A DNA stretch of 64,000 nt. Source: an uncultured Verrucomicrobiales bacterium. GTDB taxonomy: Bacteria; Verrucomicrobiota; Verrucomicrobiia; Limisphaerales; Palsa-1400. The stretch is from NCBI GenBank assembly GCA_903898185.1, contig CAIUEN010000364.1:13394-77393 (forward strand), given 5' to 3'. The notes beneath the pieces were generated by a model that did not search any database, was not told the DNA's origin, and saw only the letters and a list, made by a program, of their open reading frames with translations. Positions 6,528 through 51,709 of this stretch are shown here, one piece after another. Position 1 is the first letter of the stretch, and each line of letters starts with the position of its first letter. The position numbers and the translations under genes were made by a program.

Positions 6528-6612
6528 GGTTTTCTTTCTGGAGCTTCGGGCATCCGGCGGACTCTCCCGCGCTACGGCTGATCCGAGACTCGCTCAGCTA
6601 ATCTTCTCAAAC

Positions 6613-6687
6613 CTATTCAGGTAGCATAGGCATCCCTGCCTGTGCCCTCACTCCGACGAGCGTCAGCGAGACGCTAACTCTCCCCCC
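6613..6687 (+). repeat. family-A repeat copy A1 (degenerate termini), inside the dcw operon spacer
   Basis: CTATTCAGGTAGCATAGGCATCCCTGCCTGTGCCC...CGAGCGTCAGCGAGACGCTAAC aligns to the family-A consensus seen at 14829, 41136, 42255 and 43014. Confidence 0.7.
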
Positions 6688-6711
6688 GAACAGGCAAGAT
6701 GCCTGTTCTAC
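6688..6711. repeat. family-C palindrome (GAACAGGCAAGATGCCTGTTCTAC)
   Basis: It is a near-perfect palindrome. A related copy (GTAGAGCAGGCATCTTGCCTGCTC) lies at 45436-45459. Confidence 0.5.
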
Positions 6712-9394: not shown

Positions 9395-9489
9395 TACGGC
9401 AAGTCGTAAGTTTATGAGCGATGAATTGGTGGATTCTACTGGGTACAATGAGCATCAATCCGACTCACGAACTTACGAATTACGGTACT
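9395..9489. repeat. family-E palindromic repeat, copy E1
   Basis: The right arm CAATCCGACTCACGAACTTACGAATTACGGTAC is near-identical to the reverse complement of 20761-20790. The left arm is degenerate. It sits immediately 3' of the kinase stop (9492-9494). Confidence 0.6.
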
Positions 9490-9491
9490 AG

Positions 9492-12400
9492 TCACCCCCG
9501 CCGCACTTCGGACAGAATCTGGTTAATGATGTTGAAGAGTGCTTTCAATTCATAAGGTTTGCCCAAGAATGCCTGAGGCAGTTCGGGATGATGGCCGGCC
9601 ATTGCGGCGGCCTTGCTGTAGCCGCTTGATATAATCACGGGGATGCCCGGCGCAAGCTGGCGCAGAGCGGTCAAGGTTTCCCAGCCGTCCATGCGTGGCA
9701 TGCTCAGGTCGCACAGCACACAATCAATCTCGTCACGGTGCTGAAGAAACAATTCCACCGCCTCGACGCCGTCCACGGCGGAGAACACCGTATAACCCTT
9801 GCGCTGGAGCGCGAGCACGACAAACAAGCGCAAACACTCGTCATCATCGACCACCAGCACCGTGTCGTGCCCTGCCTTTTTCGGGGCGGGAACCACCGGC
9901 GCTGGCGGTTGAAACACGGCAACCGCCGACACCGGCAGAAAGACACGGAAGACGCTGCCCCGATCCGGTTCGCTTGTTACCGTGATGCCTCCGCCGTGTT
10001 CCCGCACAATGCCCAAAACCACCGCCAATCCCAGTCCCCGTCCGGTGAACTTGCTGGAATAGAACGGGTCGAAGAGTTTCTCCATGTCCGTAGCCGCGAT
10101 GCCGCAACCAGCGTCCGCCACTTCCAGACAGGCATAGGCAGGGGCTTGCGGCTGCCAATCCACAGGGAAACGGTTCACCACTGGGATGTCGGCGTTGGCA
10201 ACCGGCTTGACGGTCAGTCGAATGTCGCCCGATCCGTCCCTGCTGGCCTCCCAAGCGTTGGTGAGCAGATGGGTGAGCACCTGTTGAATCTGGCTGGTGT
10301 TGGCGTGGATGACCGGGCCGGGTACAGGCAGATCGGTCTTCAAGCCTACGGTTTTCGGCATGCCTGCCGTCAGCAGAGGCAGGCTCCTCTGGCAGGTTTC
10401 CGAAAGATCCAGCGTCTCATGTTCGACATGGGTTTGGCCGAGGTAGGTCAGCATTTGGTCGCCAATTCCCGCCGCCTTGCGGGCGGACTGCAATGCTTCG
10501 GTCAGATTGGTGTCGGGAACCGCGTTTTGGGGCTGATCCTCTATGGCCAGCTCCAAGCCCATCATCACCGTTTGGAGCTGGTTGTTGAGATTGTGAGCGA
10601 CGGCTCCGGCCATGCGCCGGAGGCTTTCGGACTTTTGGAGTTGAAATTGCTGATTGAGGGCTTGCAGTCTGGCCTGCTCCGCCTCCGCCCGCTTGCGCGC
10701 GGTGATGTCGCGGGCGGCGGCAAAGACGCCCAATACCTGACCATGGGCATCCCGATAGACCGTGGCGTTGTAGAGCACATCCGTAACGCGTCCGGAGATA
10801 TGCCGGATAGCCAGCGGATAGTCGCGCACGAAACCCTCCGCGAACACCTGCTGATAGCCGGCCCGCGCTTGCGCCGGTTCGGTAAAGTAATCCGAAAAAT
10901 CCGTGCCGATGAGCTGTTCGCGAGGCACGCCGGTCACCTGCGCGGAAGCGTCATTAACGTCCGTGATCTTTCCTTCGACGCTGATGGTGACGAGCGGGTC
11001 GAGACTGGCTTCGAGGAGGCTGCGCGCATACGCCGCCGCCGTTCGCAACGCCGCCTCGGTCAACTTGAGCGAGGTGATGTCGGCAAAGGTGGTCACCACG
11101 GACGCCGGACGGTCCTCGCCGGGATTCAAGATGGGTTGGGCGTTGACGTTAATCCATTTCTGCGTGCCGTCGGGTAGGCGCAAGCCCATCGTCACATTCT
11201 GGCAGGGCTGGCCGGTGCGCAGGCTCACCATCGCCGGGTGCTCCTCGCCGGCGAAAGGCCGTCCATCCTCCAACACCGCCCGCCAGCTCGGATCCACGGA
11301 GGTTTTCCCCATGATTTCGTCCCGGCTCAAGCCGAGGATGCTTTCCGCGCTCGGGTTGCAGTCGGTAATGGCGCCATCCGCCGACTGCACCACCAGTCCC
11401 TCGCCCATGTTGGCCATGATGGCCCGCAACCGGGATTCGTTTTTTTCCAGCGCCAACTCCGCCAGTTTGCGCTCGGTAATGTTATCAAAAATGGCGGCAA
11501 AACAGCCCTCGCCCGCCCACGCCGCCGACACGACCAGCCAACGCGTCAAAGGGGCAAGGTACATTTCAAATCTCTTCGGTTGGCCTGTCAATACGACACG
11601 CCCGTAGATCTCAAACAACTCGGGATTGGATTCTTTAATGTCGGGAATGACCTCCGTCACCGGCTTGCCGGTCACATTGCGCAATCCGGTCAAATGTTCG
11701 AAAGCCGGGTTGACGGCGAGGTAAACAAAGTCCACCGGTCGCTGCTGGTCGTCAAAAACCATCCGGCAATAGGAGAAACCATTCAACATCGTCCTGATGA
11801 GGGAGCGATAGCGTTCCTCACTTTTCCGGAGCGCGTCCTCCGTCCGCCGACGCTTGGTGACGTCGCGGGCGGCGGCATAGATCAACTGGCCAACGGGCAA
11901 GGCCCTCCACTCGATCCAACGGTAGGAACCGTCATTGCAACGATAGCGATTCTCAAAATTGAGAACAGTCGCGTTCGCCGCCAGTTGCGTCATTATGGCG
12001 CGGGTGGCTTCCAGATCATCCGGGTGGATAAAATCCCAAAAACGCCGACCGGTCAGATCGGCCAGGGAATACCCCAAAGTCTTTTCCCATTCGGGGTTCA
12101 AGCGGCGGAAATAAGCGTCCGCGTCGGCAATGCATAGCAAATCGAGACTGGTATTGAAGAAGCGGTTCAATTCGGCGGTGCGTTCCTCCACCTGTTGTTC
12201 CAGATTGACCTTGCTGGCTTGCAACGCTGCCTGCTGCCAGCGGTTTTCCAGGATGATGGCCAGCGCATTGCCCAGGTTTTGGATGAAGGGTTCGTATTTG
12301 ACATAATCACTCTCCCTGTCAACCGTCAGGATCAGATAGCCATAAGTTCGGACCACGGTTTCCAGGGGATAAGCCCGGACATGATCCTGTTCTGCCAAGC

Positions 12401-13631: not shown

Positions 13632-13651
13632 TATGCTACGTGAATAGTTAC
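13632..13651 (-). repeat. solo terminus of a family-A element (GTATGCTACGTGAATAGTTAC)
   Basis: It matches the reverse complement of the A left end GTAACTATTCACGTAGCATA. The rest of the element is absent. Confidence 0.45.
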
Positions 13652-14039: not shown

Positions 14040-14132
14040 GTAACTATTCACGTAGGACCCGACGTAAGAAGGCTTGATGTGTTATGACTGCGCATCTGCG
14101 TGATTTGAGCCTCCTTGCGTCGGCTCCTGCCT
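14040..14132 (+). repeat. family-A-like element with the same termini but a different core
   Basis: It has GTAACTATTCACGTAG at 14040-14055 and CCTGAATAGTTAG at the right end. The interior forms its own imperfect hairpin (CGACGTAAGAAGGC / GCCTCCTTGCGTCG). Confidence 0.5.
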
Positions 14133-14142
14133 GAATAGTTAG

Positions 14143-14832
14143 ATGCGCTCACTTATGGCCGGAGAAAACACAAACCACAGTCCAATCGATTCTGAGTTGG
14201 TGGCGCAAGCAAAATCCGGCGATCTTGCTGCGTTTGAATCGCTCGTTTGTCGCCACGAGCGTCACGCCTATTCGCTTGCGCTGAGAATTGTGCGCCATGA
14301 GCACGATGCTCAAGACGCGACACAGCAAGGCTTTCTCAGTGCCGTGGAGCATCTGAAGGATTTTCGTGAGGATTCCGGTTTTGCCACATGGTTGATGCGT
14401 GTCATGACCAACGCCGCGCTCAAGATTCTGAGAAAACGGTTGGGGTTGAATGTCGTTTCGATTGAGGAACATGCTGAGCTTCAGGATGAATTCGACTCGG
14501 TTCCCCATCCCGATTACATTGCCGACTGGCGTGAATCCCCATCGGTTTTGGTCGAGCGCAATGACACCCTTGCCATTATTGAGACAGCCTTGGGGCAATT
14601 GGACGAAAACCATCGACTGGTCTTTCTTTTGCGCGACGTTGAGGGGCTTTCTGTTCTTGAAACCGCACAAACCCTGGGTATCAGCGAGAACAATGTGAAG
14701 GTTAGGTTGTTACGGAGCCGGTTGCGGTTGCGTGAAATGCTAACGGAGAAGTTCGGCGACCCTTCTCGTCAGGTCAAGCGTGATCCCAATCATGCGCATG
14801 CGAACTTTCCAGCGGATAGAAAGAAAGTGTAA
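14143..14832 (+). CDS. ECF-type RNA polymerase sigma factor (sigma-70 family, group 4)
   Basis: 229 aa. Region 2 reads AFESLVCRHERHAYSLALRIVRHEHDAQDATQQGFLSAVEHLKDF...FATWLMRVMTNAAL. Region 4 reads HRLVFLLRDVEGLSVLETAQTLGISENNVKVRLLRSR. The TAA stop at 14830-14832 lies inside the GTAAC terminus of repeat A2. Confidence 0.85.
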   Translation: MRSLMAGENTNHSPIDSELVAQAKSGDLAAFESLVCRHERHAYSLALRIVRHEHDAQDATQQGFLSAVEHLKDFREDSGFATWLMRVMTNAALKILRKRLGLNVVSIEEHAELQDEFDSVPHPDYIADWRESPSVLVERNDTLAIIETALGQLDENHRLVFLLRDVEGLSVLETAQTLGISENNVKVRLLRSRLRLREMLTEKFGDPSRQVKRDPNHAHANFPADRKKV

Positions 14833-14926
14833 CTGTTCACGTAGCATAGGCATCCTTGCCTGTGCCCCTTCCCCCCCGGCGAGCGTCAGCGAGACGCTAA
14901 TTCATCCCTCTAACCCGAACAGTTAC
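14829..14926 (+). mobile_element. family-A MITE copy A2
   Basis: This is a full-length copy (GTAACTGTTCACGTAGCATAGGCATCCTTGCCTGTGCCCC...GAGCGTCAGCGAGACGCTAAT...CCGAACAGTTAC). Confidence 0.85.
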
Positions 14927-14932
14927 TTTTTT

Positions 14933-15023
14933 ATAATTATTCAGAGGGAGAAATTAGCGTCTCGCTGACGCTCGCCGGAAAGAGGAACACAGGCAAGGAT
15001 CCCTATGCTACCTGAAAAGTTAC
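14933..15023 (-). mobile_element. family-A MITE copy A3 (inverted, tail-to-tail with A2)
   Basis: TCAGAGGGAGAAATTAGCGTCTCGCTGACGCTCGCCGG...CACAGGCAAGGATCCCTATGCTACCTGAAAAGTTAC is the reverse complement of the A consensus. Confidence 0.8.
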
Positions 15024-17910: not shown

Positions 17911-18006
17911 GTAACAATTCAGGTCGGAGGGAGAAATCAGAGTCTCGCTGACGCTCGCCGGGGGAAGGGGCACAGGCAAGGATGCCTATGCTACCTTAAT
18001 AGTTAC
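17911..18006 (-). mobile_element. family-A MITE copy A4
   Basis: The copy reads GTAACAATTCAGGTCGGAGGGAGAAATCAGAGTCTCGCTGACGCTCGCCGG...GGCAAGGATGCCTATGCTACCTTAATAGTTAC. The flanking 8-mers GGCTCATG and GGCTGATA match at 6 of 8 positions. Confidence 0.85.
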
Positions 18007-20732: not shown

Positions 20733-20758
20733 CCCACTTGCGGTATAGTAACGTAATT

Positions 20759-20852
20759 CGTAAGTTCGTGAGTCGGATTGACGCTCATTTTACCCAGTAA
20801 AATGACAGTCCAACCGATTCACGAATTTACGAATTACGGTAATTGTAGCTTT
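20759..20852. repeat. family-E palindromic repeat, copy E2 (about 30-bp terminal inverted repeats)
   Basis: ACGTAATTCGTAAGTTCGTGAGTCGGATTG (20761-20790) pairs with CAACCGATTCACGAATTTACGAATTACGGT (20821-20850). It is related to 9395-9489. Confidence 0.7.
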
Positions 20853-26172: not shown

Positions 26173-26922
26173 TCAGTTTTCTTTTTTTGCGTCCTCCACC
26201 TTGATGGCTTTGGGCAGACGCAAGAGTTTCGAACTAATCGCCAATCCGACGCGTTGAGCCCGGCTTGGATTGACCTCAAACCTGACATTCTTGTTCAACA
26301 CCACGAAGTTGATCATCCCTCCCTGCTGCGCAAAACCGTCGATTTCGCTCACCGTCAGAATCGGCGCTGATCCAACTCTCTCAAGTATCTCGCCAACCCG
26401 GCCCTTTAGACTGTGACTGACGAACAGGACGTGGCAACAATTAGGACTGTCTTTTTCTCCAAGGAGCTTAACCTCCAGTTTTCGGCCTTTGACCAATTCA
26501 CCGTTGACGGTCTGATCGAGCAGCGAGCCGAACGGATTCTCCCCAATGATGCCGATTGTGATTGGCGTTAAAGCGTCGGCAAAAGCTTTTTCCGGCCATT
26601 CCACGAATTTCGTAAAATTGAAAAGAAAAACTGCCTTGATCTGGTATTCCACTTCCGCCGCCGCAGGTTGCGATTGAGCTGTGACATCAGCCAGGCAGAA
26701 ATAACCCAATAGTATGAGCGCCAACACGCGTCGAGCCAAACCTGCTGAAAGATCATTCTGCCCGCTGTGCCTCTCCAAAATGGGCGCTCTAAATTCACCC
26801 CCTTGTGGGGCGTACCTCTGGTCTGCCCGTTCCCGGAGCCTCAGGGTCCGCGGACGCGGCGCTCGGGCCGCGTGAGTGCCCAAGCTCTCCGCCTTCCGAT
26901 TCATGGTTTCTGAAGATAGCAT
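26173..26922 (-). CDS. periplasmic DUF4154 / YfiR-like protein
   Basis: YQIKAVFLFNFTKFVEWP...ITIGIIGENPFG...CHVLFVS...ILTVSEIDGFAQQGGMINFVVLNKNVRFEVNPSRAQRVGLAISSKLLRL matches the DUF4154 pattern as I remember it. There is a signal-like segment (RRVLALILLGYFCLADVTAQS). The N-terminal boundary is uncertain. Confidence 0.8.
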   Translation of the reverse strand: MLSSETMNRKAESLGTHAARAPRPRTLRLRERADQRYAPQGGEFRAPILERHSGQNDLSAGLARRVLALILLGYFCLADVTAQSQPAAAEVEYQIKAVFLFNFTKFVEWPEKAFADALTPITIGIIGENPFGSLLDQTVNGELVKGRKLEVKLLGEKDSPNCCHVLFVSHSLKGRVGEILERVGSAPILTVSEIDGFAQQGGMINFVVLNKNVRFEVNPSRAQRVGLAISSKLLRLPKAIKVEDAKKEN

Positions 26923-26937
26923 ATTTGTTGGAGCTCC

Positions 26938-29040
26938 TCAGAACCGATAGGTTAGCTTCACTCTAAAGTTGCGCCCATCCTGTTGAACCGCATCCAGCGG
27001 ACTAAAATCCGCCGAGACTGGATCACGGTAGGTGCAATCAAACACGTTGTAAATGCTGGCCGAGATCTCCAAATTCTTGACCAACTCGCGGCTAAAAAGC
27101 GTGGCGTTGGCGATCCAGAAAGCGCCGGTTTCGGTGCGTTCGACTGTCCATCGTTTGCTCGTCCCCTGCAATTCCAACCCGGCGGAGATTTTGTCCAGGT
27201 AGAGCGGGATGATCAGGTTCAACTTGGCCATGTGCTTTGGAGAATTGCTCAGGAACTGACCCGAATCGGAGTCACGGCTCTCCTGAAACGTGTAACTCGC
27301 CTTTCCGCGCCACCCATGGCCCCAATGTCCGTCCAATTCCATTTCCGCGCCGCGCGATTGCACCGAATTAAGGTTGGCAGCATAAAGAAGATTATCGCTC
27401 GGATCCCTTTGGGAATCGATCAGTCCGTCAATTTCATTCAGAAACAGCGAAGACTGAAGACGCGCATGGGAGTTAAGTTCCTGCTCGAAAACCAGTTCGT
27501 AGGAATGAACCTTCTCACTCTTCAGTTGGAGATTCGGCTTGTAACCGGGCATCGCGTAATACATCTCACTCGCGTTTGGCGCCCGAAAGGCTTCCCCATA
27601 GAGGAACTTGAAGGTGCTTTTGGTCACCGGTTGATAGACCATCGACATACGGGGATTAAACGTGTCGCCAAACGTGCTGAAGTAGTCATAGCGAAGTCCG
27701 CCGTTGACCGCGAAACCATGAAAAATCTGATACTCGTCCTGGACATATACTCCAACGGTATCGTTCCTGTTGCGTGTGTCGAAATAGTCAGCTCGTGGCA
27801 AAATATCATAGTTCCTCTGAGCCAGGTAAAAATCGTGAATTACTTCCGAACCCGCCGTAAGCACATTATCATCGAACAATGGCTTGCTTGCGAGCATTTC
27901 AGCGCCCATCAGTTCCGCTTCGCTGAAATCGCGATTCTTTATGACTTGCCCAGGATAAAGCGGGTCAGCGAAATCCACGATCGATGGCAGCATGTTGTGG
28001 GCGTCAAATTGATAGTGATCAAAATAGACGCGGGCCGTCACCGCGAGATCGTTCTCAAATCCATGCGAATACTTGAGATCCACATACCCACGTTCGTCCA
28101 TGGCAAACGTGCCCGGCTGACCAAACACCGTGCCAAACGGAGCGTTTGGCAAATCTTTGCGACGATGGACAATGGCCCCTTGCAGAGTGAAGTCGCGGTA
28201 GGACAGGGTCGAGATCGCGCTCTTGACGGTATTACCATCCAATCCTCGCGCGATGCCCTGTTGAACGGAGCGATATTCGGGATAAAACAACTCCTTGTGG
28301 CCATCGCTGTCGAGATAGGTTCCGGACATGGCGAGTTCGACCCCATTGGTAAAAACTCTCCCGTAGCTGGCGCGCCCGGTATAGGTATCGTAACTTGCGA
28401 CGGCGCTGGAGACTTCAGTCCCGTTGAGATCTCGTCCTTTGCGCGTGATTACATTGATCACAGCAAAGAACGCATTGTTTCCGTAAAGCGACGATCCAGG
28501 CCCGCGAATAACCTCGACGCGCTCAATCATATCGACGTCCACCAATCCTTCGGTGCCGCTGAATGCCTGGTCATAAATCGGCTCATTCACCCGATGACCG
28601 TCAACCATGAGCAGTATCCTGTCGCCATAGTCTCCAGGTCGATTGATACCCCTGGCGCCAATATAGCTGTAGTAGCGATCTGAAGTTACGTTAAACCCCC
28701 GCACTCCTCGAAGCACGTCAGCCAGAGTGCGATAGCCGTATTGCTTGATGTCAGAGGATGTGACGATGCTTACTGATGAAGGTGCCTCGGTTACCTTTTG
28801 TTCGTGTTTAGACGCGCCATAGACTGTGGGAATCTCCACATCCATCAGATCTTCCACGCTCATTTTCTTGAGAGCCGCCACGCCTTCCGGGGCATTGGTT
28901 TGTGCGAGCGCCAATTGTGGCGATGCACAGATGACTGCCAGAAACAAAAAAAGAAGCCTGCCGCGTTTGCATCCAGAGCTATGCAACCACAACATTCCCT
29001 TCGATGGAGAACTCGTCAGCAGTTTTTCAGCAATTCTCAT
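26938..29040 (-). CDS. TonB-dependent receptor-like outer-membrane beta-barrel
   Basis: The plug domain reads LKKMSVEDLMDVEIPTVYGASKHEQKVTEAPSSVSIVTSSDI...ADVLRGVRGF. A long barrel follows, ending in the aromatic terminus ...NFRVKLTYRF. The track N-terminus (29041-29211) translates a repeat. Plausible starts are ATG 29038-29040 (MRIAEK...) or ATG 28993-28995 (MLWLHSSGCKRGRLLFLFLAVICASPQLALA). Confidence 0.9.
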   Translation of the reverse strand: MRIAEKLLTSSPSKGMLWLHSSGCKRGRLLFLFLAVICASPQLALAQTNAPEGVAALKKMSVEDLMDVEIPTVYGASKHEQKVTEAPSSVSIVTSSDIKQYGYRTLADVLRGVRGFNVTSDRYYSYIGARGINRPGDYGDRILLMVDGHRVNEPIYDQAFSGTEGLVDVDMIERVEVIRGPGSSLYGNNAFFAVINVITRKGRDLNGTEVSSAVASYDTYTGRASYGRVFTNGVELAMSGTYLDSDGHKELFYPEYRSVQQGIARGLDGNTVKSAISTLSYRDFTLQGAIVHRRKDLPNAPFGTVFGQPGTFAMDERGYVDLKYSHGFENDLAVTARVYFDHYQFDAHNMLPSIVDFADPLYPGQVIKNRDFSEAELMGAEMLASKPLFDDNVLTAGSEVIHDFYLAQRNYDILPRADYFDTRNRNDTVGVYVQDEYQIFHGFAVNGGLRYDYFSTFGDTFNPRMSMVYQPVTKSTFKFLYGEAFRAPNASEMYYAMPGYKPNLQLKSEKVHSYELVFEQELNSHARLQSSLFLNEIDGLIDSQRDPSDNLLYAANLNSVQSRGAEMELDGHWGHGWRGKASYTFQESRDSDSGQFLSNSPKHMAKLNLIIPLYLDKISAGLELQGTSKRWTVERTETGAFWIANATLFSRELVKNLEISASIYNVFDCTYRDPVSADFSPLDAVQQDGRNFRVKLTYRF

Positions 29041-29113
29041 TTTGGGGTAATACGGAGGTAAAACGGAGGTAAAACTCTGATCTCTGCCTGCGCGCGAGGT
29101 TTCCGCCCTCCAG

Positions 29114-29174
29114 CGGAGCCAGAGGCACCGCAACCGGCAGACCAGAGGTCTACCCCACATAATGAGAATTGCTG
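29114..29174 (-). repeat. family-B repeat arm (CGGAGCCAGAGGCACCGCAACCGGCAGACCAGAGGTCTACCCCACATAATGAGAATTGCTG)
   Basis: It aligns to 51409-51467 and 43161-43208 and contains the palindromic core GGCAGACC-N-GGTCTRCC. Confidence 0.7.
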
Positions 29175-29236
29175 GCAGTTTTTTCATTGCGCAACCTGTT
29201 TCCATATCCAAGAGTAATCTGAAGTGGCTCTTTCAA

Positions 29237-29414
29237 TTGGGGCAGACCTCTGGTCTGCCAGCACCTCGTTATCGAGGCGCAGCGATTAGTTGTGCTGTAA
29301 CTATTAGGCATCCTGCCTGTGCCCCTCTTTCCGCCGAGCGTCGCGAGACGCTAATTTCTCCTTCTGACGTGAACAGTTGCGTTGTGCTGACTGTTCCTGG
29401 AGCCTCTGGCTCCG
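29237..29414 (+). repeat. family-B repeat arm interrupted by MITE A5
   Basis: TTGGGGCAGACCTCTGGTCTGCCAGCACCTCGTTATCGAGG...GATTAGTTGTGCT [A5] GTTGTGCTGACTGTTCCTGGAGCCTCTGGCTCCG is colinear with the uninterrupted copy at 51303-51385. Confidence 0.75.
29297..29380 (+). mobile_element. family-A MITE copy A5, nested inside a family-B repeat, with a perfect 8-bp target-site duplication
   Basis: GTTGTGCT occurs at 29289-29296 and again at 29381-29388, directly flanking GTAACTATT...GAACAGTTGC. The same B sequence at 51353-51368 carries GTTGTGCT once. Confidence 0.85.
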
Positions 29415-29483
29415 TAAATTCCAACCGACTTAAGGAGACCCTGCTTCCGTATTGGTTATCTTGTGTGAGAGCGTATTCAAAAT

Positions 29484-30755
29484 TCACAAAGATTTCAAGT
29501 AGATACTCTTCAGGTAGGTAGCCTCAGGGAAAGTCGATGGGTGATCGGGCGGGTGACCCGTGGTCTCGATTTCGGTGAACCCACGACCTGAACGCTCTGC
29601 AGCCAGACGGACAGCCTCGAAGAACTCGGGCGCGGAGACGTGGGCGGAGCAGGAAGCCGCGACCAGCACGCCTCCTTTTCGCAGCGACTTTATCGCGCTC
29701 GCCACGAGCGTCCCATACGCCCGAATGGCCCCTGCCCGCTCAGCTTCCCGCTTGGCCAGAGACGGCGGATCGAGGATTATCAAGTCAAAGAGCTGCGTCG
29801 TATTTCTTTCAAGCCATGCGAACACGTCTCCCTGCAATGTGACATGCCGACACCGGGCAATTTGTGGGATTGCCTGGTTGAGAGCAAAATTTCTCCGCGC
29901 GGACTCAATTGCATGCGCGCTGATATCGAGGTCGGTCACCGCCCTTGCGCCACCCCGTGCCGCGTACAGAGAAAACCCGCCCGAGTAGCTGAATGCATTG
30001 AGCACGTCACGCCCTTGCGATAGCAATTCCACGCGGCGGCGGTTTTCGCGTTGATCCAGGAAAAAACCGGTCTTTTGTCCGCGAACAACATCGGCTTCAA
30101 ACTGGATGCCGTTCTCCTGAAAAATCACAGGCCCATCCAGTTCCTTGCCAAAAATCACCTGTCCATCGCGAACGCCAAACTCCTTCGCCTTCTCTTGAAT
30201 GTTGCGGCTCAACCGCAGGACGATTCCATCGGGATGGAAGACGCTTTGGAAGAGCGATGTGAACTGTTCGATCCGTGGCAGCCACGCTGCTGTGTACAAT
30301 TTCAGGACGAGAACCCCCTTGTAGCGGTCGAGCGCCAAGCCTGGCCAGCCGTCACTCTCGCCGCAAATCCAACGCCAGCCATCAGTTTGGCTGTCAAACA
30401 GGGTGCGCCGCCGCGCCATCGTTTCTTCCAGGCGCATTTGCCACCACGCGTCGTCCAGTGTCAAAGGTTTCCCGACATGAAGCATCCGAACGCGCAACGG
30501 CGAATCCGGATCAAACAATCCGATTCCAAGAAAACGGTCCGCGCGGTCGTAAATCACCGCCAACTCTCCCAGATTACCCTCGCGATTCTGATCGCGAACG
30601 CTGGAGGCAAACAACCACGGATGCCCGGAACGGATGATGCTCTCGGCAGCGGCGGTTACTCGCAGACGGAGCCGTGGAGGATGCGCTACAGTCGCATCCT
30701 TGTGGGGCAGACCTAGGGTGTTGAATTGATCGGTTTTTTGCTCTGGAAAGGTCAT
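29484..30755 (-). CDS. rlmI: class I SAM-dependent rRNA (cytosine-C5) methyltransferase, RlmI-like (PUA + MTase)
   Basis: 423 aa with ...[14 protein letters not shown]..., ...[10 protein letters not shown]..., ...[16 protein letters not shown]... and ...IILDPPS.... The exact start is uncertain. Confidence 0.75.
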
Positions 30756-31304: not shown

Positions 31305-31430
31305 AGAAAACCGGCTGCGGACAATACCAATCGCGCAGCCGGATTTCAACCATCATGCGTCTGCAATTCCGGCTACGGACGATACCAATCGATCAGCCGG
31401 ACTTCAACGCCAGCATCATTGCCGACCAGT
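31305..31430 (-). promoter_or_regulatory. crcB leader with two tandem ~58-nt units, each carrying a hairpin; the proximal one is terminator-like
   Basis: On the minus strand, CCGGCTGCG-N14-CGCAGCCGG (31311-31342, perfect 9-bp stem) is followed by TTTTCT and then the ATG. A diverged copy lies at 31369-31400. It does not match the fluoride-riboswitch consensus as I remember it. Confidence 0.3.
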
Positions 31431-31503
31431 TATACTTTGAACGGCTAAGAATGTTACTTTTTTGCACCGAGAAGAAGGAACGATCTTACCCGTTCAAAGT
31501 ATA
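31431..31503. repeat. family-F palindromic repeat, copy F1 (TATACTTTGAACGG...CCGTTCAAAGTATA)
   Basis: It has 14-bp perfect terminal inverted repeats. The same element lies in the opposite internal orientation at 49746-49817. Confidence 0.7.
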
Positions 31504-31768
31504 CTTGAATTTTTTGACTGGCCGCCACCCGGTCGCCATCGAACCGAGCGTTAACACCGATCGCCGTAAGCGACACCAAAGTCAGCGCGCCAACAAGGAC
31601 TCCCCAACCGGCTGGAAACACTTCGAAAAAACAAGTCAACTTCATGCCCAAACATTATCCGGGGGCAATTCGAAATCAAACAAAATGGTGACTGCGTCAA
31701 GCGCTGGCCCATGAGACACGTTTGCCTGCAAGCTTTGCATTTTACCCCTGCCGCGCTAGAGTCAGCCT

Positions 31769-38252: not shown

Positions 38253-38424
38253 GCTTGAGAATTTATCCCAAGTTGCGGGCCGCGTAAAGGCACCTATCGC
38301 CCAATCCACCTCAAAGGGTGTGTGACCGGAAAGTAACCGGGGCACACGAAGGCACGAAGGCACAAAAAGGATTGGGTGTGGGTTTGGTACTGTCTTTCCA
38401 AGGGAGAAGGTCGAACCGGAAAGG

Positions 38425-38540
38425 GTTGAATATCCAATATCCAACAAGGAATGTCCAATTTCCAAGGGGGGAGTCAACTGTAGAACAAGCTGTCTTTCCT
38501 TCCTCCTTGGACATTCCTTGTTGGATATTGGATATTTAAC
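38425..38540. repeat. family-D long inverted repeat (34-bp arms, 48-nt spacer)
   Basis: GTTGAATATCCAATATCCAACAAGGAATGTCCAA (38425-38458) pairs with TTGGACATTCCTTGTTGGATATTGGATATTTAAC (38507-38540) with one mismatch. A half copy lies at 51677-51709. Confidence 0.75.
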
Positions 38541-38684
38541 CATTCCTCATTTCCAGCGTGAGTTGCTTTTCGCCCTATTGAGAACTGCTGGTCCCGAGGG
38601 TAAGAAACTTGACGCCAGCCGCTTTTTCCGCAATATGCTACTCGCAGCCGGGCTTGCAGCCCGGTGAGATTTATATATAAAATC

Positions 38685-39911: not shown

Positions 39912-39980
39912 TCGCCACGAGGATGGGCATTGCGCTTCCACTTGTTGTCTCAGGCGCGAGACCCGGTGGAAAAAGCAACC

Positions 39981-40100
39981 TTGTGGGGCAGACCTCTGGT
40001 CTGCCGGTTGAATGGGTCTCTGACCCATCGAATCCGCATCTCCCCAGATGCCAATCCACGGAGTCAGAGACTCCGTCAACTGTCAGGTCAGAGACCTTCC
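39981..40100. repeat. family-B core palindrome (GGGGCAGACCTCTGGTCTGCC, 39985-40005) plus further short palindromes
   Basis: The B core is followed by GGGTCTCTGACCC, CGGAGTCAGAGACTCCG and GGTCAGAGACC palindromes. The track ORF 39923.. translates this stretch as a spurious N-terminus. Confidence 0.55.
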
Positions 40101-41135: not shown

Positions 41136-41231
41136 GCAACTATTCAAGTAGCATAGGCATCCTTGCCTGTGCCCCTATTTCCGGCGAGCGTCAGCGAACC
41201 GCTAATTTCTCCCTCTGACCTGAACAGTTAC
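41136..41231 (+). mobile_element. family-A MITE copy A6
   Basis: The copy reads GCAACTATTCAAGTAGCATAGGCATCCTTGCCTGTGCCCC...GAGCGTCAGCGAACCGCTAATTTCTCCCTCTGACCTGAACAGTTAC. It lies between convergent genes. The flanks AATGATTC and GATGTTCA are only loosely similar. Confidence 0.85.
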
Positions 41232-41241
41232 GATGTTCAAG

Positions 41242-42216: not shown

Positions 42217-42254
42217 AATAATTTAAGATGATTCGTCCCGCTCACCCATTGCCT

Positions 42255-42352
42255 GTAACTATTCACGTAGCGTAGGCATCCTTGCCTGCGCCCCTCTCTC
42301 TCCGTCGAGCGTCAGCGAGACGCTAATTTCTCCCTATGACCTGAATAGTTAC
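42255..42352 (+). mobile_element. family-A MITE copy A7 with a perfect 8-bp target-site duplication (CATTGCCT)
   Basis: CATTGCCT occurs at 42247-42254 and at 42353-42360, directly flanking GTAACTATTCACGTAG...CCTGAATAGTTAC. The termini GTAACTATTCA and TGAATAGTTAC are perfect inverted repeats. Confidence 0.9.
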
Positions 42353-42962
42353 CATTGCCTTTCAACTCTCCCTTAATGGCGTTCAACAGTTCGCCATAGG
42401 CTTCAAATGGGGTGAACTGCGGGAATTGCTGTTTGATTAATTCAGGCGCATGAAAGAAAAAACCGGCGTTTGCCTCCATGAGCATTGCAGTATCATTGAA
42501 TGAATCTCCGGCAGCGACTATATAATAATACAGACTCTTAAGGGCGATGACCGAATGGCGCTTGGGCTGGGGCTGGCGGAGTTTGTAGTCGGCAACCCGG
42601 CCATTTTCGATCACCAAGTGATTGCAAAAAATAGTGGGCCACTCAAGCTGCTTCATCAGCGGCTTGGCAAACTCCTCAAAGGTGTCGGACAAAATGATGA
42701 CCTGCGTCAGCGACCGCAATTCCCTCAAAAACTCCAAGGCGCCATCAAGCGGTCGGAGTGTCGCAATAACCTCTTGAATGTCCGCCAGCTTGAGACCGTG
42801 CTGGTCGAGAATTTTGATGCGCCCAAGCATCAGCTTCTCGTAGTCGGGTTCATCGCGGGTTGTGCGGCGTAACTCGACAATACCAGTCTTCTCGGCCACC
42901 GAAATCCAAATCTCGGGAACCAAGACACCCTCCAAATCCAGAACAACAACGGACTGCTTCAC
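42312..42962 (-). CDS. thrH: ThrH-like HAD phosphatase (phosphoserine phosphatase / homoserine phosphotransferase)
   Basis: VVVLDLEGVLVPEIWISVAEKTG...DEPDYEKLM..R..ILDQHGLKLADIQEVIATL.PL.GA.EF...VIILSDTFEEFA.PLM.QL..PT..C..L...KLRQ...K..VIALKSLYY.IVAAGDSFNDT.ML closely follows my recollection of Pseudomonas ThrH. I propose the start at GTG 42960-42962. The track start (TTG 43008-43010) lies in the flank of a MITE. The last 13 codons plus the stop are MITE A7 sequence. Confidence 0.8.
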   Translation of the reverse strand: MKQSVVVLDLEGVLVPEIWISVAEKTGIVELRRTTRDEPDYEKLMLGRIKILDQHGLKLADIQEVIATLRPLDGALEFLRELRSLTQVIILSDTFEEFAKPLMKQLEWPTIFCNHLVIENGRVADYKLRQPQPKRHSVIALKSLYYYIVAAGDSFNDTAMLMEANAGFFFHAPELIKQQFPQFTPFEAYGELLNAIKGELKGNGNYSGHREKLASR

Positions 42963-43013
42963 GGCGGGGAGTCTTTCAAAGAAGCACTTGGATGTCCAGA
43001 AAATCGGCAAATC

Positions 43014-43115
43014 AACTATTCACGCACGTACGTAGCATAGGCATCCTTGCCTGTGCCCCTCCTTCCGGCGAGCGTCAGCGAGCCGCTAATTTCTCCCTCT
43101 GACCTGAAAAATTAC
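43014..43115 (+). mobile_element. family-A MITE copy A8 with a perfect 8-bp target-site duplication (GGCAAATC)
   Basis: GGCAAATC occurs at 43006-43013 and at 43116-43123, flanking AACTATTCACGCACGTACGTAGCATAGG...CCTGAAAAATTAC. The left terminus lacks the GT of GTAAC. Confidence 0.85.
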
Positions 43116-43160
43116 GGCAAATCATCCAGCCAGAGCTGCTCTCAAGTCGAGTAGCGTCCA

Positions 43161-43208
43161 CGGAGCCAGAGGCTCCTGGAACCGGCAGACCGGAGGTCTG
43201 CCCCACAA
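43161..43208 (-). repeat. family-B repeat arm
   Basis: CGGAGCCAGAGGCTCCTGGAACCGGCAGACCGGAGGTCTGCCCCACAAGG aligns to 29114-29160 and 51409-51455. Confidence 0.6.
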
Positions 43209-43320
43209 GGGCGCGACTTTAAAGCAACCCTGTCATCCAGCAGTTACTGAAGAAATTCATTTGACGAGTTGGCTCTGTTGTCCTTTAGTCGGTAGTAGCA
43301 TTTATAAAAGGCTTTCTTTA

Positions 43321-45490: not shown

Positions 45491-45593
45491 CAATTACCCG
45501 TTCAGGTCAGAAGGATGAATTGGCGTCTCGCTGACGCTCGCCGGAAAGAGAAGCACAGGCAAGGATGCCTATGCTACCTGAGCAAATTGTTAC
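45491..45593 (-). mobile_element. family-A MITE copy A9
   Basis: The copy reads CAATTACCCGTTCAGGTCAGAAGGATGAATTGGCGTCTCGCTGACGCTCGCCGG...GGCAAGGATGCCTATGCTACCTGAGCAAATTGTTAC. Its GTTAC end contains the TAA stop (45590-45592, minus strand) of the adjacent gene. Confidence 0.8.
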
Positions 45594-46420
45594 TTCTGCT
45601 TTTTTGGGCGGAACCCAGGTGGAAGATTCGAATGAATCGTAGAATCCGTCAGATCCGATGACGGGTCTGCCTGCACGAATTGCGCATTGCCGGGATGGAT
45701 GGGCGCATCGGGAGCAGAAATTTCCTCGGGCCATCCAAGCGCCTGACGAGCCTTCTTGGCGGCAGATGTCTTCGGGTGATCGTTCACGATTTTGCGCAAC
45801 AACGCGTCGTATTCCGCCTGCCGTCCGAGTTTCGAATAGAGATTGCAGAGGTGAATGGCAGCCCAACCCCAGCGATCGGAGCTCAGCTTGCGCTTGAGGA
45901 TTTCCTCGTATTCCATTGCAGCGGCAAGGTAATTCCGAAAATCCTTTTCGTAAATCTCAGCAATGCGCAGGGCCGCATACTGCGCGCGCGGATTCCTTTT
46001 GAGGTAGTCGCGCATCAGTTCGACGGCTTCCATCGGGCGGCCCGCCGCCCAAACCTGCTCGGCCCGCTCGTATTCGGGATCTTTAGTGGCTGGGCCGTCA
46101 TCATCAAACAGCATATCGACAGTGCGACACGCGAATTGCCTGACAACATCGCAGGCAATCAGGATTCCCAGACCGACTATTGCAAAAATCAAGCCCGCAA
46201 AATAGAAGATCATCAATTTGCGACTCCCAGATGCATCCACCGCCGCCTCAGGCGTGATTGCCGAATAATTGACGTGGAATCCCCACGCAAACCAGAGCGC
46301 CACGATCAAAAGCAAGCCATAGGCGGCCAATTTCAGCTTTGCTAACATCAGAGCTAGTAAACCAAGAAAACTCGTTTGAAAAAAGTTTTTTACATAATGA
46401 GAATCGCTGCTCTCATCCAT
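45590..46420 (-). CDS. hypothetical membrane protein with a TPR-like C-terminal half
   Basis: 276 aa with about 3 TM segments (FLGLLALMLAKL..., GLLLIVALWFAWGF, MIFYFAGLIFAIVGLGILIA), followed by helical-repeat sequence (AEQVWAAGRPMEAVELMRDYLKRNPRAQYAALRIAEIYEKDF...). Its ATG (46418-46420) abuts the ATPase stop (46421-46423). Confidence 0.6.
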   Translation of the reverse strand: MDESSDSHYVKNFFQTSFLGLLALMLAKLKLAAYGLLLIVALWFAWGFHVNYSAITPEAAVDASGSRKLMIFYFAGLIFAIVGLGILIACDVVRQFACRTVDMLFDDDGPATKDPEYERAEQVWAAGRPMEAVELMRDYLKRNPRAQYAALRIAEIYEKDFRNYLAAAMEYEEILKRKLSSDRWGWAAIHLCNLYSKLGRQAEYDALLRKIVNDHPKTSAAKKARQALGWPEEISAPDAPIHPGNAQFVQADPSSDLTDSTIHSNLPPGFRPKKQK

Positions 46421-49735: not shown

Positions 49736-49745
49736 AAAGAAGAAT

Positions 49746-49817
49746 TATACTTTGAACGGATAAGATCGTTCCTTGTTCGTGACGCAAAAAGTAACATTCT
49801 TACCCGTTCAAAGTTTA
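49746..49817. repeat. family-F palindromic repeat, copy F2
   Basis: TATACTTTGAACGG...CCGTTCAAAGTTTA has an interior that is the inverse of F1 (31431-31503). Its last 3 nt form the nnr stop codon (TAA on the minus strand, 49815-49817). Confidence 0.7.
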
Positions 49818-51239
49818 CCTGCCCAGTTCTCGAACCAGCTCCTCTGGAGTCCAGTTTGGAATGCTTGCGCTCAATCGATCAGCCGCCGCGCCGTGTTCCC
49901 AGACGGCGAAACGAATCGAGCGTAACGCATTGGCTTGCAACTGAGGCTGCGCCAACAGTCCCCCTATGTATCCAGCCAATATGTCACCGCTGCCGCCTTG
50001 GGCAAGAAATGGATTTCCAGAAGAGTTGACAAAAATATTGCCCGATGCTTTGCCAACCAGAGTTTGGTGGCCTTTGAGAACAACCCAGCAATCGCCGAAC
50101 CGGCGAGATAGCGCGCGCAGGCAGCCCGGTCGGTCCGCTTGGAGATGCTCAGTCGGCACGCCAATCATCCGCGCCGCCTCACCCGGGTGCGGCGTGATGA
50201 CGCGAATCGCGTGGCTGGGCACCGGGCCGGACGGGATCCAGTCCAACGCGCTGGCATCAACCACCACTGGCAGCGGCGTCTCCAGCCAGAGGGCGCGCAT
50301 TTCGTTCTTGAACTCGTCCGTCAAATCGTCGTCGGCGAGACCGGGACCAATCAAAAAACCGCTGATGCTCTTGGGCAAAGACTGCGCCGGTTTCCATGAA
50401 TGCACCATGGCGGCCCTGAGATGAGCGGCCACCGGAACATAAACGGACGGCTGTGTCCAAATGGTAATCAAACCCGGTTGGGCCCGTTGCGCGCCTTGGG
50501 TAGCCAGCACGGACGCGCCGTGGCATCCCATGCTGCCAGCGAAAATGGCCAGGTGTCCATAGGTTCCCTTGTGGCTTTCCACCGGTCGGCGTGGTGGAAA
50601 GTTCGCAAAATCCTCCGCGACCGTCCAGTAGAGATCGCTGATCAATAAATGCTCGACCAGACCGATTTGTGAGGCAACTTCGAGCCTGCCGACATACGGT
50701 TTGGCCTTGTCTGTTAATAATCCGGCCTTCACCGCGCCCACCGTCAGCGTCACCACCGCTCGAATCGCCGCGCCTGCCGGTTCGCCCGATTCAACATTCA
50801 GTCCGGACGGGCTGTCCACTGCAAGCACCGGAAGGTCGGTTGCATTGATTGTGTTAATCAAACCGATCCAATCATCGCTGAGCTGTCGATTGAGACCGAT
50901 CCCAAACAACCCGTCAACGATCCAGGTCCGGCGGTCAGTTTCCATGGTTTCGACAAGCCGGCCCAGCGTCTCTGTTGCCAGTGCGGGATCGGTGACATTG
51001 ATCAGCGTGGCATGACGGTCCGCCAAATGGGGCAGAGCGGCGTGCGCGTCGTCACCATTGTGCCCACGTCCGGCCAACAGAATGATTGAATCTCCTGACC
51101 GGGTAAGTTCCAACATGCGCTTTGCAATGAGTTTCCCCACGTTTTGGATGACCGCATCCGAAGAAATGCCCGCCGCCCAACTGGTGTTCTCCCAGTCGCG
51201 CATTTGAGCTACAGAAATAACAGAAACAGGCATAAGCAA
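49815..51239 (-). CDS. nnr: bifunctional NAD(P)H-hydrate repair enzyme Nnr (epimerase + ADP-dependent dehydratase)
   Basis: 474 aa. The YjeF_N part reads LLAGRGHNGDD. The C-terminal kinase-like part has HKGTYGH, VIGPGL-like, TPHPGE, VLKG and GGSGDILAG motifs. Confidence 0.9.
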   Translation of the reverse strand: MLMPVSVISVAQMRDWENTSWAAGISSDAVIQNVGKLIAKRMLELTRSGDSIILLAGRGHNGDDAHAALPHLADRHATLINVTDPALATETLGRLVETMETDRRTWIVDGLFGIGLNRQLSDDWIGLINTINATDLPVLAVDSPSGLNVESGEPAGAAIRAVVTLTVGAVKAGLLTDKAKPYVGRLEVASQIGLVEHLLISDLYWTVAEDFANFPPRRPVESHKGTYGHLAIFAGSMGCHGASVLATQGAQRAQPGLITIWTQPSVYVPVAAHLRAAMVHSWKPAQSLPKSISGFLIGPGLADDDLTDEFKNEMRALWLETPLPVVVDASALDWIPSGPVPSHAIRVITPHPGEAARMIGVPTEHLQADRPGCLRALSRRFGDCWVVLKGHQTLVGKASGNIFVNSSGNPFLAQGGSGDILAGYIGGLLAQPQLQANALRSIRFAVWEHGAAADRLSASIPNWTPEELVRELGR

Positions 51240-51286: not shown

Positions 51287-51467
51287 CAGCAATTCTCATT
51301 ATGTGGGGTAGACCTCTGGTCTGCCAGCACCTCGTTATCGAGGTGCATTGATTGTTGTGCTGACTGTTGCGATGCCTCTAGCTCCGCACGAAGTTTTCGA
51401 TCCCTTTGCGGAGCCAGAGGCACCGCAACCGGCAGTCCGGAGGCCTACCCCACATTGAGAACTGCTG
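51287..51467. repeat. family-B full element (~180 bp) with ~38-bp terminal inverted repeats
   Basis: CAGCAATTCTCATTATGTGGGGTAGACCTCTGGTCTGCC (51287-51325) pairs with GGCAGTCCGGAGGCCTACCCCACATTGAGAACTGCTG (51431-51467). The inner arms GTTGCGATGCCTCTAGCTCCG and CGGAGCCAGAGGCACCGCAAC also pair. Confidence 0.8.
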
Positions 51468-51595
51468 TATCGAGGTGCATTGATTGTTGTGCTGACTGTT
51501 GCGGCACTTCCGGCTCCGCAGAGAGTCGAGTATTTTGTGCGCAGGCAGATCAGAGTTTTCCCACCTTATTCCCTCAAAATGAGAATTGCTGTGTT
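51468..51595. repeat. partial tandem reiteration of family-B segments
   Basis: TATCGAGGTGCATTGATTGTTGTGCTGACTGTTGCGGCACTTCCGGCTCCG repeats 51336-51386. The stretch ends with another AAAATGAGAATTGCTG terminus (51577-51592). Confidence 0.55.
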
Positions 51596-51676
51596 GGAGT
51601 GGGTTCGCCTTCCGCGTTCCGTATTCTGCAATTCCAATTGCCAATTCCAGGTTTGGTGGCTTCCCTACTTCATTAT

Positions 51677-51709
51677 TGGACATTCCTTGTTCGATACTGG
51701 ATATTCACC
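51677..51709. repeat. family-D half copy
   Basis: TTGGACATTCCTTGTTCGATACTGGATATTCACC aligns with 38507-38540. Confidence 0.5.

Follow-up and report, generated by a model that had tools for sequence, protein, structure and literature searches.

Family A, a recently mobile MITE of freshwater Verrucomicrobiota flanked by 8-bp target-site duplications

Family A, a repeat of about 96 bp found in the window (the whole stretch of 64,000 nucleotides that was analysed), is a bona fide MITE that was recently mobile. It is an element of an ordinary kind, and it constitutes a new MITE family, from the under-studied phylum Verrucomicrobiota. The call is based on its small size and lack of coding capacity, its terminal inverted repeats (TIRs), the dispersal of its copies, the 8-bp duplications at their flanks and the existence of two kinds of empty site. 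The best explanation overall, and very probably the right one, is that family A is a non-autonomous DNA transposon of ~96 bp belonging to an uncultured freshwater bacterium of the Verrucomicrobiota. An initial annotation had already named it a bona fide MITE, and every defining property that could be tested has borne this out. Family A adds a well-evidenced, recently active family to a phylum in which such elements have barely been described, and it leaves the current understanding of how MITEs work unchanged.

Copies of family A and the genes around them

A search of the window with nhmmer, using a profile built from the copies, gave nine strong matches to family A (E = 8e-30 to 4e-20), and the next match had an E-value of 0.03. 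Besides these nine copies the search showed a solitary 20-nt end (13632-13651), and the window includes an element whose termini are the same but whose core differs, so that the copy list of the initial annotation holds (Table 1). Some of the boundaries given there were slightly off, as for the element at 14040 described as having a variant core, which really runs to 14144, where it ends in CCTGAATAGTTAg, so that both of its termini are present. The patterns of the 5' and 3' ends of family A were each matched five or six times in the window at ≤3 mismatches, compared with 0 times in shuffled sequences. Approximately 19 more sites were obtained by scanning sequence collections, on 15 JGI contigs and 2 MAG contigs.

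The copies are 84-108 bp long, ~96 bp being typical, they have no coding capacity, and they are dispersed in both orientations. The GTAAC...GTTAC termini noticed at the outset correspond to a TIR of 14 bp with the consensus GTAACTATTCAsGT / ACCTGAAyAGTTAC, though several copies have decayed or lost ends; intact copies show GTAAC at both ends.

Table 1. Copies of family A, elements that share its terminus, and clusters of family-B repeats. Positions are those of the window unless a contig is named.
Feature	Position or contig	Strand	nhmmer match	Target-site duplication	Remarks
Family A	6609-6700	+	6611-6699		old decayed copy, both termini lost; between rsmH and the next dcw-cluster gene
Solo 5' end	13632-13651	-			GTAACTATTCACGTAGCATA, 20 nt; kept in JGI contig L061
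Second MITE type	14040-14144	+			GTAACTATTCACGTAGG...CCTGAATAGTTAg, unrelated palindromic core
Family A	14829-14926	+	14830-14925		full copy
Family A	14933-15023	-	15022-14939		inverted, 6 nt from the 14829 copy; 3' terminus decayed (ATAAT)
Family A	17911-18006	-	18005-17912	6/8	full copy; between the convergent multihaem/Ig-domain protein gene and glmS
Family A	29297-29380	+	29305-29378	GTTGTGCT, 29289-29296 and 29381-29388, perfect	internally deleted, inside a REP-like family-B repeat
Family A	41136-41231	+	41137-41230		full copy, terminus GCAAC; between convergent FGE-sulfatase and epimerase genes
Family A	42255-42352	+	42256-42351	CATTGCCT, left copy 42247-42254, right copy 42353-42360	full copy, 98 bp, intact GTAAC...GTTAC termini
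Family A	43014-43115	+	43026-43114	GGCAAATC, 43006-43013 and 43116-43123, perfect	without terminal GT, 8-nt insertion near the 5' end; between divergent HAD and sucC genes
Family A	45491-45593	-	45587-45495		decayed ends
164-bp element	L011, L017, L024, L067, L070				samples Ga0207043 and Ga0207085
87-bp element	L050				
210-bp element	L063				
420-bp composite	L008				164-bp element with a nested palindrome insertion
105-bp variant-core element	L080/L081			TTAAGAAG/CTAAGAAG	clean copy
Family-B clusters	26786-26857, 29113-29174, 29238-29287, 30683-30719, 39979-40033, 43154-43225, 51287-51353, 51408-51455				

The genes of the window, according to Pfam and gene tables, are ordinary chromosomal genes, which include the dcw cluster, histidine kinases, a TonB-dependent receptor, sucCD and glycosyltransferases. 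The closest named relatives of its GlmS protein are 81-83% identical and come from MAGs labelled 'Verrucomicrobiae' and 'Verrucomicrobiota bacterium'. The samples are lake metagenomes, BUCK21 scaffolds included, and the same organism is present in JGI sample 3300021075. The only two matches in the genome collection, L006 and L007, are contigs of 1.7-1.9 kb from the same lake study that belong to GTDB representative MAGs labelled Enhydrobacter aerosaccus and Desulfobulbaceae; they are probably mis-binned fragments of Verrucomicrobiota. Many contigs of this freshwater lineage end inside family-A copies, which explains the breakage of its assemblies into short contigs.

Every copy is intergenic or clips the last codons of a gene, and a stop codon is found 0-100 nt from most of them; the overlap with ORFs is restricted to the last codons or the stop of three flanking genes. 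The claim of an exclusive placement at gene ends is nonetheless overstated, since the solo end at 13632 and the copy at 43014 sit between divergent gene starts. Three ORFs end inside a copy. The stop of the ECF sigma-factor ORF (14143-14832) is the TAA within the GTAAC terminus of the 14829 copy, and that of the TPR-protein ORF (45590-46420, minus strand) is the TAA of the GTAAC terminus of the 45491 copy. The HAD-hydrolase gene (42312-42962, minus strand) takes its last 12 codons and its stop from the 42255 copy (...KGNG-NYSGHREKLASR before the stop); when the element and one duplication are taken out, the ending ...KGNG is restored, and the HAD alleles of other strains end in NYSG, NYSGQREKLASC or KGKS. 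Family A has in this way remodelled genes on a small scale, by a 12-residue C-terminal extension of the HAD hydrolase and by the donation of stop codons to two genes.

Copies of family A often adjoin one another at a distance of 6-8 nt, in direct or inverted orientation (L037, 189-385; L003, 1237-1433; window, 14829-15023), and this may reflect a preference for insertion beside an existing copy or the movement of a pair as a unit. The tandem pair in L003, a scaffold with Ns, is possibly an assembly artefact.

Other repeats occur in the window. Family B consists of short palindromes, for example (GT)GGGGCAGACC-TCT-GGTCTGCC and CGGAGCCAGAGGCTCCG, which are clustered and found in both orientations. 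A third repeat is a near-perfect palindrome of 93 bp (TAACGTAATTCGTAAGTTCGTGAGTCGGATTGA...) at 20749-20841, with a half-copy at 9433-9492. Two more intergenic repeats are each present as a pair, inverted or direct: AAGGGTTGAATATCCAATATCCAACAAGGAATGTCCAA (38421-38544 and 51662-51707) and TTATACTTTGAACGG.TAAGA...GTTAC (31430-31507 and 49743-49821).

Target-site duplications and empty sites

Three perfect 8-bp duplications (CATTGCCT, GTTGTGCT and GGCAAATC) had been reported for the window, and they sit at the coordinates claimed for them; a fourth, around 17911-18006, matches at 6 of 8 positions, as had also been said. The sample of sites was enlarged by one scan of a genome collection and by one metagenome scan with the 17-nt terminus. 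The latter yielded 68 loci, some with family A, some with other MITE cores and some that match by chance within genes; family A was found in 15 of the 68, all from the JGI samples Ga0194063 and Ga0194037. Among the independent sites with both ends readable, which come from several metagenomes, 13 of 23 have a perfect 8/8 duplication and one more has 7/8. As a control, left flanks were combined with right flanks taken from other sites, and of these mismatched pairs 0/506 agreed at 8/8 and 1/506 at 7/8, with a mean of 2.7 matches. Ten of the perfect duplications lie outside the window (L007, L036, two in L040, L043, L046, L056, L065, L071 and L074); for instance, the MAG contig L007 carries a full copy with ATTTTTTC on both sides. 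Copies on other metagenome contigs thus generally have duplications, while about one third of the sites, which are old, have adjacent copies or are rearranged, show no recognisable one. The duplicated octamers are 66% A+T, compared with 46% A+T for the genome, and show a weak SATAWWTC tendency.

The first kind of empty site is paralogous. The 29297 copy interrupts a family-B repeat, which reads ...GCGATTA-GTTGTGCT-[MITE]-GTTGTGCT-GACTGTTCC... (29289-29388), and two sister family-B repeats in the window are uninterrupted and carry a single GTTGTGCT, at 51354-51361 and 51486-51493, in the context ...GCATTGATT-GTTGTGCT-GACTGTTGC.... The octamer that is single in the sister repeats and doubled around the MITE identifies these as empty sites and shows a duplication of exactly 8 bp.

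The second kind was found by comparing contigs that encode an identical epimerase protein with the window around the 41136 copy. L004, which is from a different ENA assembly and is 97.5-98.7% identical, aligns on both sides of 41136-41235 and is without that stretch: it reads AAATAATTCAAGTC where the window has AAATGATTC[MITE]GATGTTCAAGTC, and so has a single copy of the target; a longer reading of L004 gives GGTTAAATAATTCAAGTC, against GGTTAAATGATTC[MITE]GATGTTCAAGTC in the window. In three further assemblies the gap between the epimerase and sulfatase genes, taken from gene coordinates alone, is 8-22 nt, compared with 125 nt in the window, and this spacing indicates that the 41136 copy is absent from them too. 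The duplication at this polymorphic site has decayed. The absence of the copy could be the ancestral state or the result of a secondary precise deletion, and the site is polymorphic either way. When the fixation of copies at orthologous positions was examined, it was therefore seen that they are not fixed, at least one site being polymorphic among close strains.

Two other close strains, L080 and L081 (98.6-99.5% identical), keep the 17911 copy and the 14829/14933 copies, and are without a segment of 3.3 kb, 26184-29482, which includes the 29297 copy. This segment holds a DUF4154/YfiR-like gene, a TonB-dependent receptor gene, a REP cluster and one MITE, and in L080 and L081 a methyltransferase gene abuts a CHASE8 histidine kinase gene at the corresponding place. 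Insertions of family A can serve as strain-resolving markers in population studies of boreal-lake Verrucomicrobiota. Farther relatives, whose GlmS proteins are 90% and 83% identical, have no family-A copy in the 5 kb and 22 kb of their sequence (27 kb in total), and on this small sample the family looks confined to a narrow lineage. No copy was found either in a further 8.4 kb of the genome to which the window belongs, which covers the rest of the dcw operon.

Hairpins, conservation and other possible origins

Both internal hairpins described for family A are present. In the predicted fold the termini are paired and enclose the two hairpins, with a free energy of -37 kcal/mol (z = -6.4 relative to shuffled sequences). 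Hairpin 1 has the form GTAG-CATAGGCA-TCCT-TGCCTGTG. Over 21 distinct copies the divergence from the consensus is 2.2-2.9% in the two hairpin regions, 7.5% in the 3' terminus and 16-20% in the CT-rich spacer and the 3' subterminal stretch (hairpins versus 3' terminus, p = 2e-4; hairpins versus spacers, p = 3e-21); the 5' terminus was left out of this comparison, the metagenome copies having been selected on it. If only the nine copies of the window are considered, divergence is ~24% in the termini and 6% in the hairpins, a gap partly inflated by indels. One compensatory change, from A-U to G-C, is found in hairpin 1; four copies that form a subfamily have it, an intermediate state is seen once, and as a single event it argues only weakly for structural constraint. 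The copy at 42255-42352, which reads GTAACTATTCACGTAGCGTAGGCATCCTTGCCTGCG...GAGCGTCAGCGAGACGCTAATTTCTCCCTATGACCTGAATAGTTAC, belongs to this subfamily with a compensated hairpin 1 (GCGTAGG...CCTGCGC). The hairpins may be conserved because propagation depends on them or because the host benefits from them, or the pattern may reflect slippage-prone CT tracts elsewhere in the element.

The low divergence of the hairpins, together with the compensatory change, the strong fold and the location of most copies beside stop codons, would also fit a module selected by the host, that is, a terminator, an mRNA stabiliser, a protein-binding site or a small RNA that selection retained at gene ends and that spread by duplication or recombination and not by transposition. 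We consider such an origin very unlikely. The copies lie in both orientations relative to the flanking transcription, only one of them scores as terminator-like, and no match to family A was obtained in Rfam at gathering or permissive thresholds (best E-value 4). The compensatory change was inherited within one subfamily, the CT-rich spacers may be prone to slippage, and the duplications, like the empty sites, are proof that the copies were inserted by transposition. A function for the host is compatible with the later exaptation of a MITE, and as such is not an alternative origin.

The form of hairpin 1, a short GTAG-headed palindrome like those of classical REPs, raises the possibility that family A is a REP/REPIN-type element moved by a RAYT (an HUH tyrosine transposase). 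Family A is likewise extragenic and clusters with other palindromic repeats. Transposition of the IS200/IS605 type, catalysed by Y1 enzymes, makes no target duplication and needs no TIRs. For this reason the reading is rejected as highly improbable: in family A, 8-bp duplications of variable sequence are the rule, empty sites have one copy of the target, and TIRs are present. In addition, the two hairpins of each unit are mutually unrelated, so that the unit is not an inverted REP doublet, and no Y1 transposase domain was detected in the window ORFs scanned. REPs with GTAG or GTGG tags are reported from Opitutus terrae, a member of the Verrucomicrobia (Di Nocera et al. 2013, PMC3733652); hairpin 1 has the GTAG head of such REPs, and the family-B repeats of the window (GTGG-GGCAGACC-TCT-GGTCTGCC), with their GTGG head and stem-loop, resemble them as well.

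An artefact of metagenome assembly, by chimeric joins or collapsed repeats, can be given practically no credence: contigs do often end inside copies (L003-L006 and L079), and L003 has Ns and a suspicious tandem pair, but identical copies with their flanks recur in independent ENA, JGI and Logan assemblies and sit within long syntenic contigs.

Elements with the same terminus, the putative transposase and known systems

Among the metagenome loci, the terminus of 16-17 nt, GTAACTATTCACGTAGG, also bounds unrelated cores of 87-210 bp (Table 1). Perfect 8-bp duplications flank five copies with such cores (GATGTTTT, TTTCTATC, CAATAATT, AAAAAGTT and CCTAAAAA); the duplications in L017 and L008 are 7/8, and L024 and L050 have none. 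The finding of unrelated cores with one terminus is expected if a single type of transposase cross-mobilises several deletion derivatives. L070, one of the contigs that carry the 164-bp element, has a G+C content of 41-43%, compared with 54% for the window, and this difference places it in a different organism; the best named matches to the kynureninase of the host of this element are 57-59% identical and come from a mixture of PVC and other lineages. The 105-bp copy in L080 and L081 sits where the window has the different, 93-bp palindrome at 20749-20841. In these two strains the site holds this variant-core MITE and a 1.1-kb insert with a PIN-domain gene, and its different contents across strains mark it as an intergenic insertion hot spot. 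At positions 4259-4727 of L058, an unrelated metagenome contig, two small elements that carry the shared terminus (GTAACTGTTCAGGTAG... and ...CTACGTGAATAGTTAC) stand on either side of an rpoZ-like gene; this stretch of 469 bp was considered as a composite element and rejected, given that it is rpoZ between two small elements and no matching duplication was seen.

The common terminus across unrelated cores offers a concrete handle for finding the transposase responsible. A broader reading, which we regard as unlikely, is that the terminus GTAACTATTCACGTAG defines a wider MITE superfamily with unrelated cores, present in at least two organisms, the Verrucomicrobiota bacterium of the window (54% G+C) and a different bacterium (42% G+C), and served by one conserved, perhaps unconventional transposase. 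The hairpins of family A, which are 3- to 8-fold less diverged than the termini and spacers, would then be under selection as a functional module, which either takes part in transposition or has been exapted by the host at the 3' ends of genes.

Insertion by a DDE transposase at a staggered cut is recognised by the combination of inverted termini with duplications that are fixed in length and variable in sequence. From this we infer for family A a mechanism in which a DDE-type transposase would act in trans, from a gene located elsewhere in the genome, and recognise the TIRs of 14-17 bp (GTAACTATTCAsGTAG). Insertion would take place at staggered cuts 8 bp apart, with a preference for AT-rich targets, and the repair of the stagger would give rise to the 8-bp duplication. 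Copies would survive only where they do little harm, in intergenic DNA and in the last few codons of genes, where the GTAAC/GTTAC ends may readily provide a TAA stop. The two internal hairpins may contribute to transposition, for instance by serving as subterminal binding sites.

In agreement with the initial annotation, no transposase was found among the window ORFs scanned (Pfam and gene table), and no autonomous element bounded by family-A termini was found in the window or in 86 loci. The genome-collection scan with a 25-nt degenerate pattern of the 5' end returned only the two short MAG contigs and no partner, and the metagenome scan with the 17-nt terminus revealed no autonomous element among its 68 loci. 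A search of all available DNA for inverted pairs of termini separated by 0.6-4.5 kb gave none with matching duplications. The ORFs that lie inward of each terminus match encode flagellar, ADH, COX, aspartokinase, purine-synthesis and similar proteins, and no transposase. Viral scans and plasmid blastn gave nothing, or chance-level matches unrelated to the element. These absences are weak evidence, as the partner scans could detect only exact matches of 17-25 nt, and assemblies built from short reads are interrupted at repeats. Two candidates were rejected on inspection: a pair of termini 5.1 kb apart in L026, which are separate ends with a flagellar operon between them, and a match in L010, which falls in the 3' end of an ORF.

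With respect to the family of the transposase, IS66 is our best guess, a tentative one, because GTAA ends and 8-bp direct repeats are the IS66 signature. The inverted repeats of IS66 elements start with GTAAGCG or GTAACCG and are accompanied by 8-bp direct repeats (PMC11946415; PMC12888890), examples being GTAAGCGTCCGG... and GTAACCGTCCGG... (PMC12888890). Family A has the GTAA ends and the 8-bp direct repeats in common with the IS66 family (IS66 and ISBst12 groups); in contrast, its terminus is A+T-rich, starts with GTAACTA and not with the usual GTAAGCG, and shows no likeness beyond the first 4-5 bases, and no tnpA, tnpB or tnpC genes were seen alongside it. Other families that duplicate 8 bp (IS256, ISL3, IS6, IS1595 and IS1) are possible partners; these families usually have ends beginning with GG or GA. 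Integron attC sites were discarded, given that the ends of family A do not fit RYYYAAC/GTTRRRY, its copies are not arrayed, and duplications are present.

A literature search for the family-A terminus returned irrelevant matches only, and the reviews of bacterial MITEs that were consulted describe none from Verrucomicrobiota. The closest parallels are with MITEs of other bacteria, namely Nezha of cyanobacteria, RUP of Streptococcus pneumoniae, Correia/NEMIS of Neisseria and MITEAba12 of Acinetobacter. RUP, which is of the IS630 type, duplicates TA, whereas family A duplicates 8 bp. Like these elements as a group, family A is of ~100 bp and without an ORF, has TIRs, target duplications of fixed length and a strongly folding transcript, is present in dozens of intergenic copies, nests into other repeats, varies in presence or absence at the level of strains, and occasionally provides an adjacent gene with its stop codon or with C-terminal residues.
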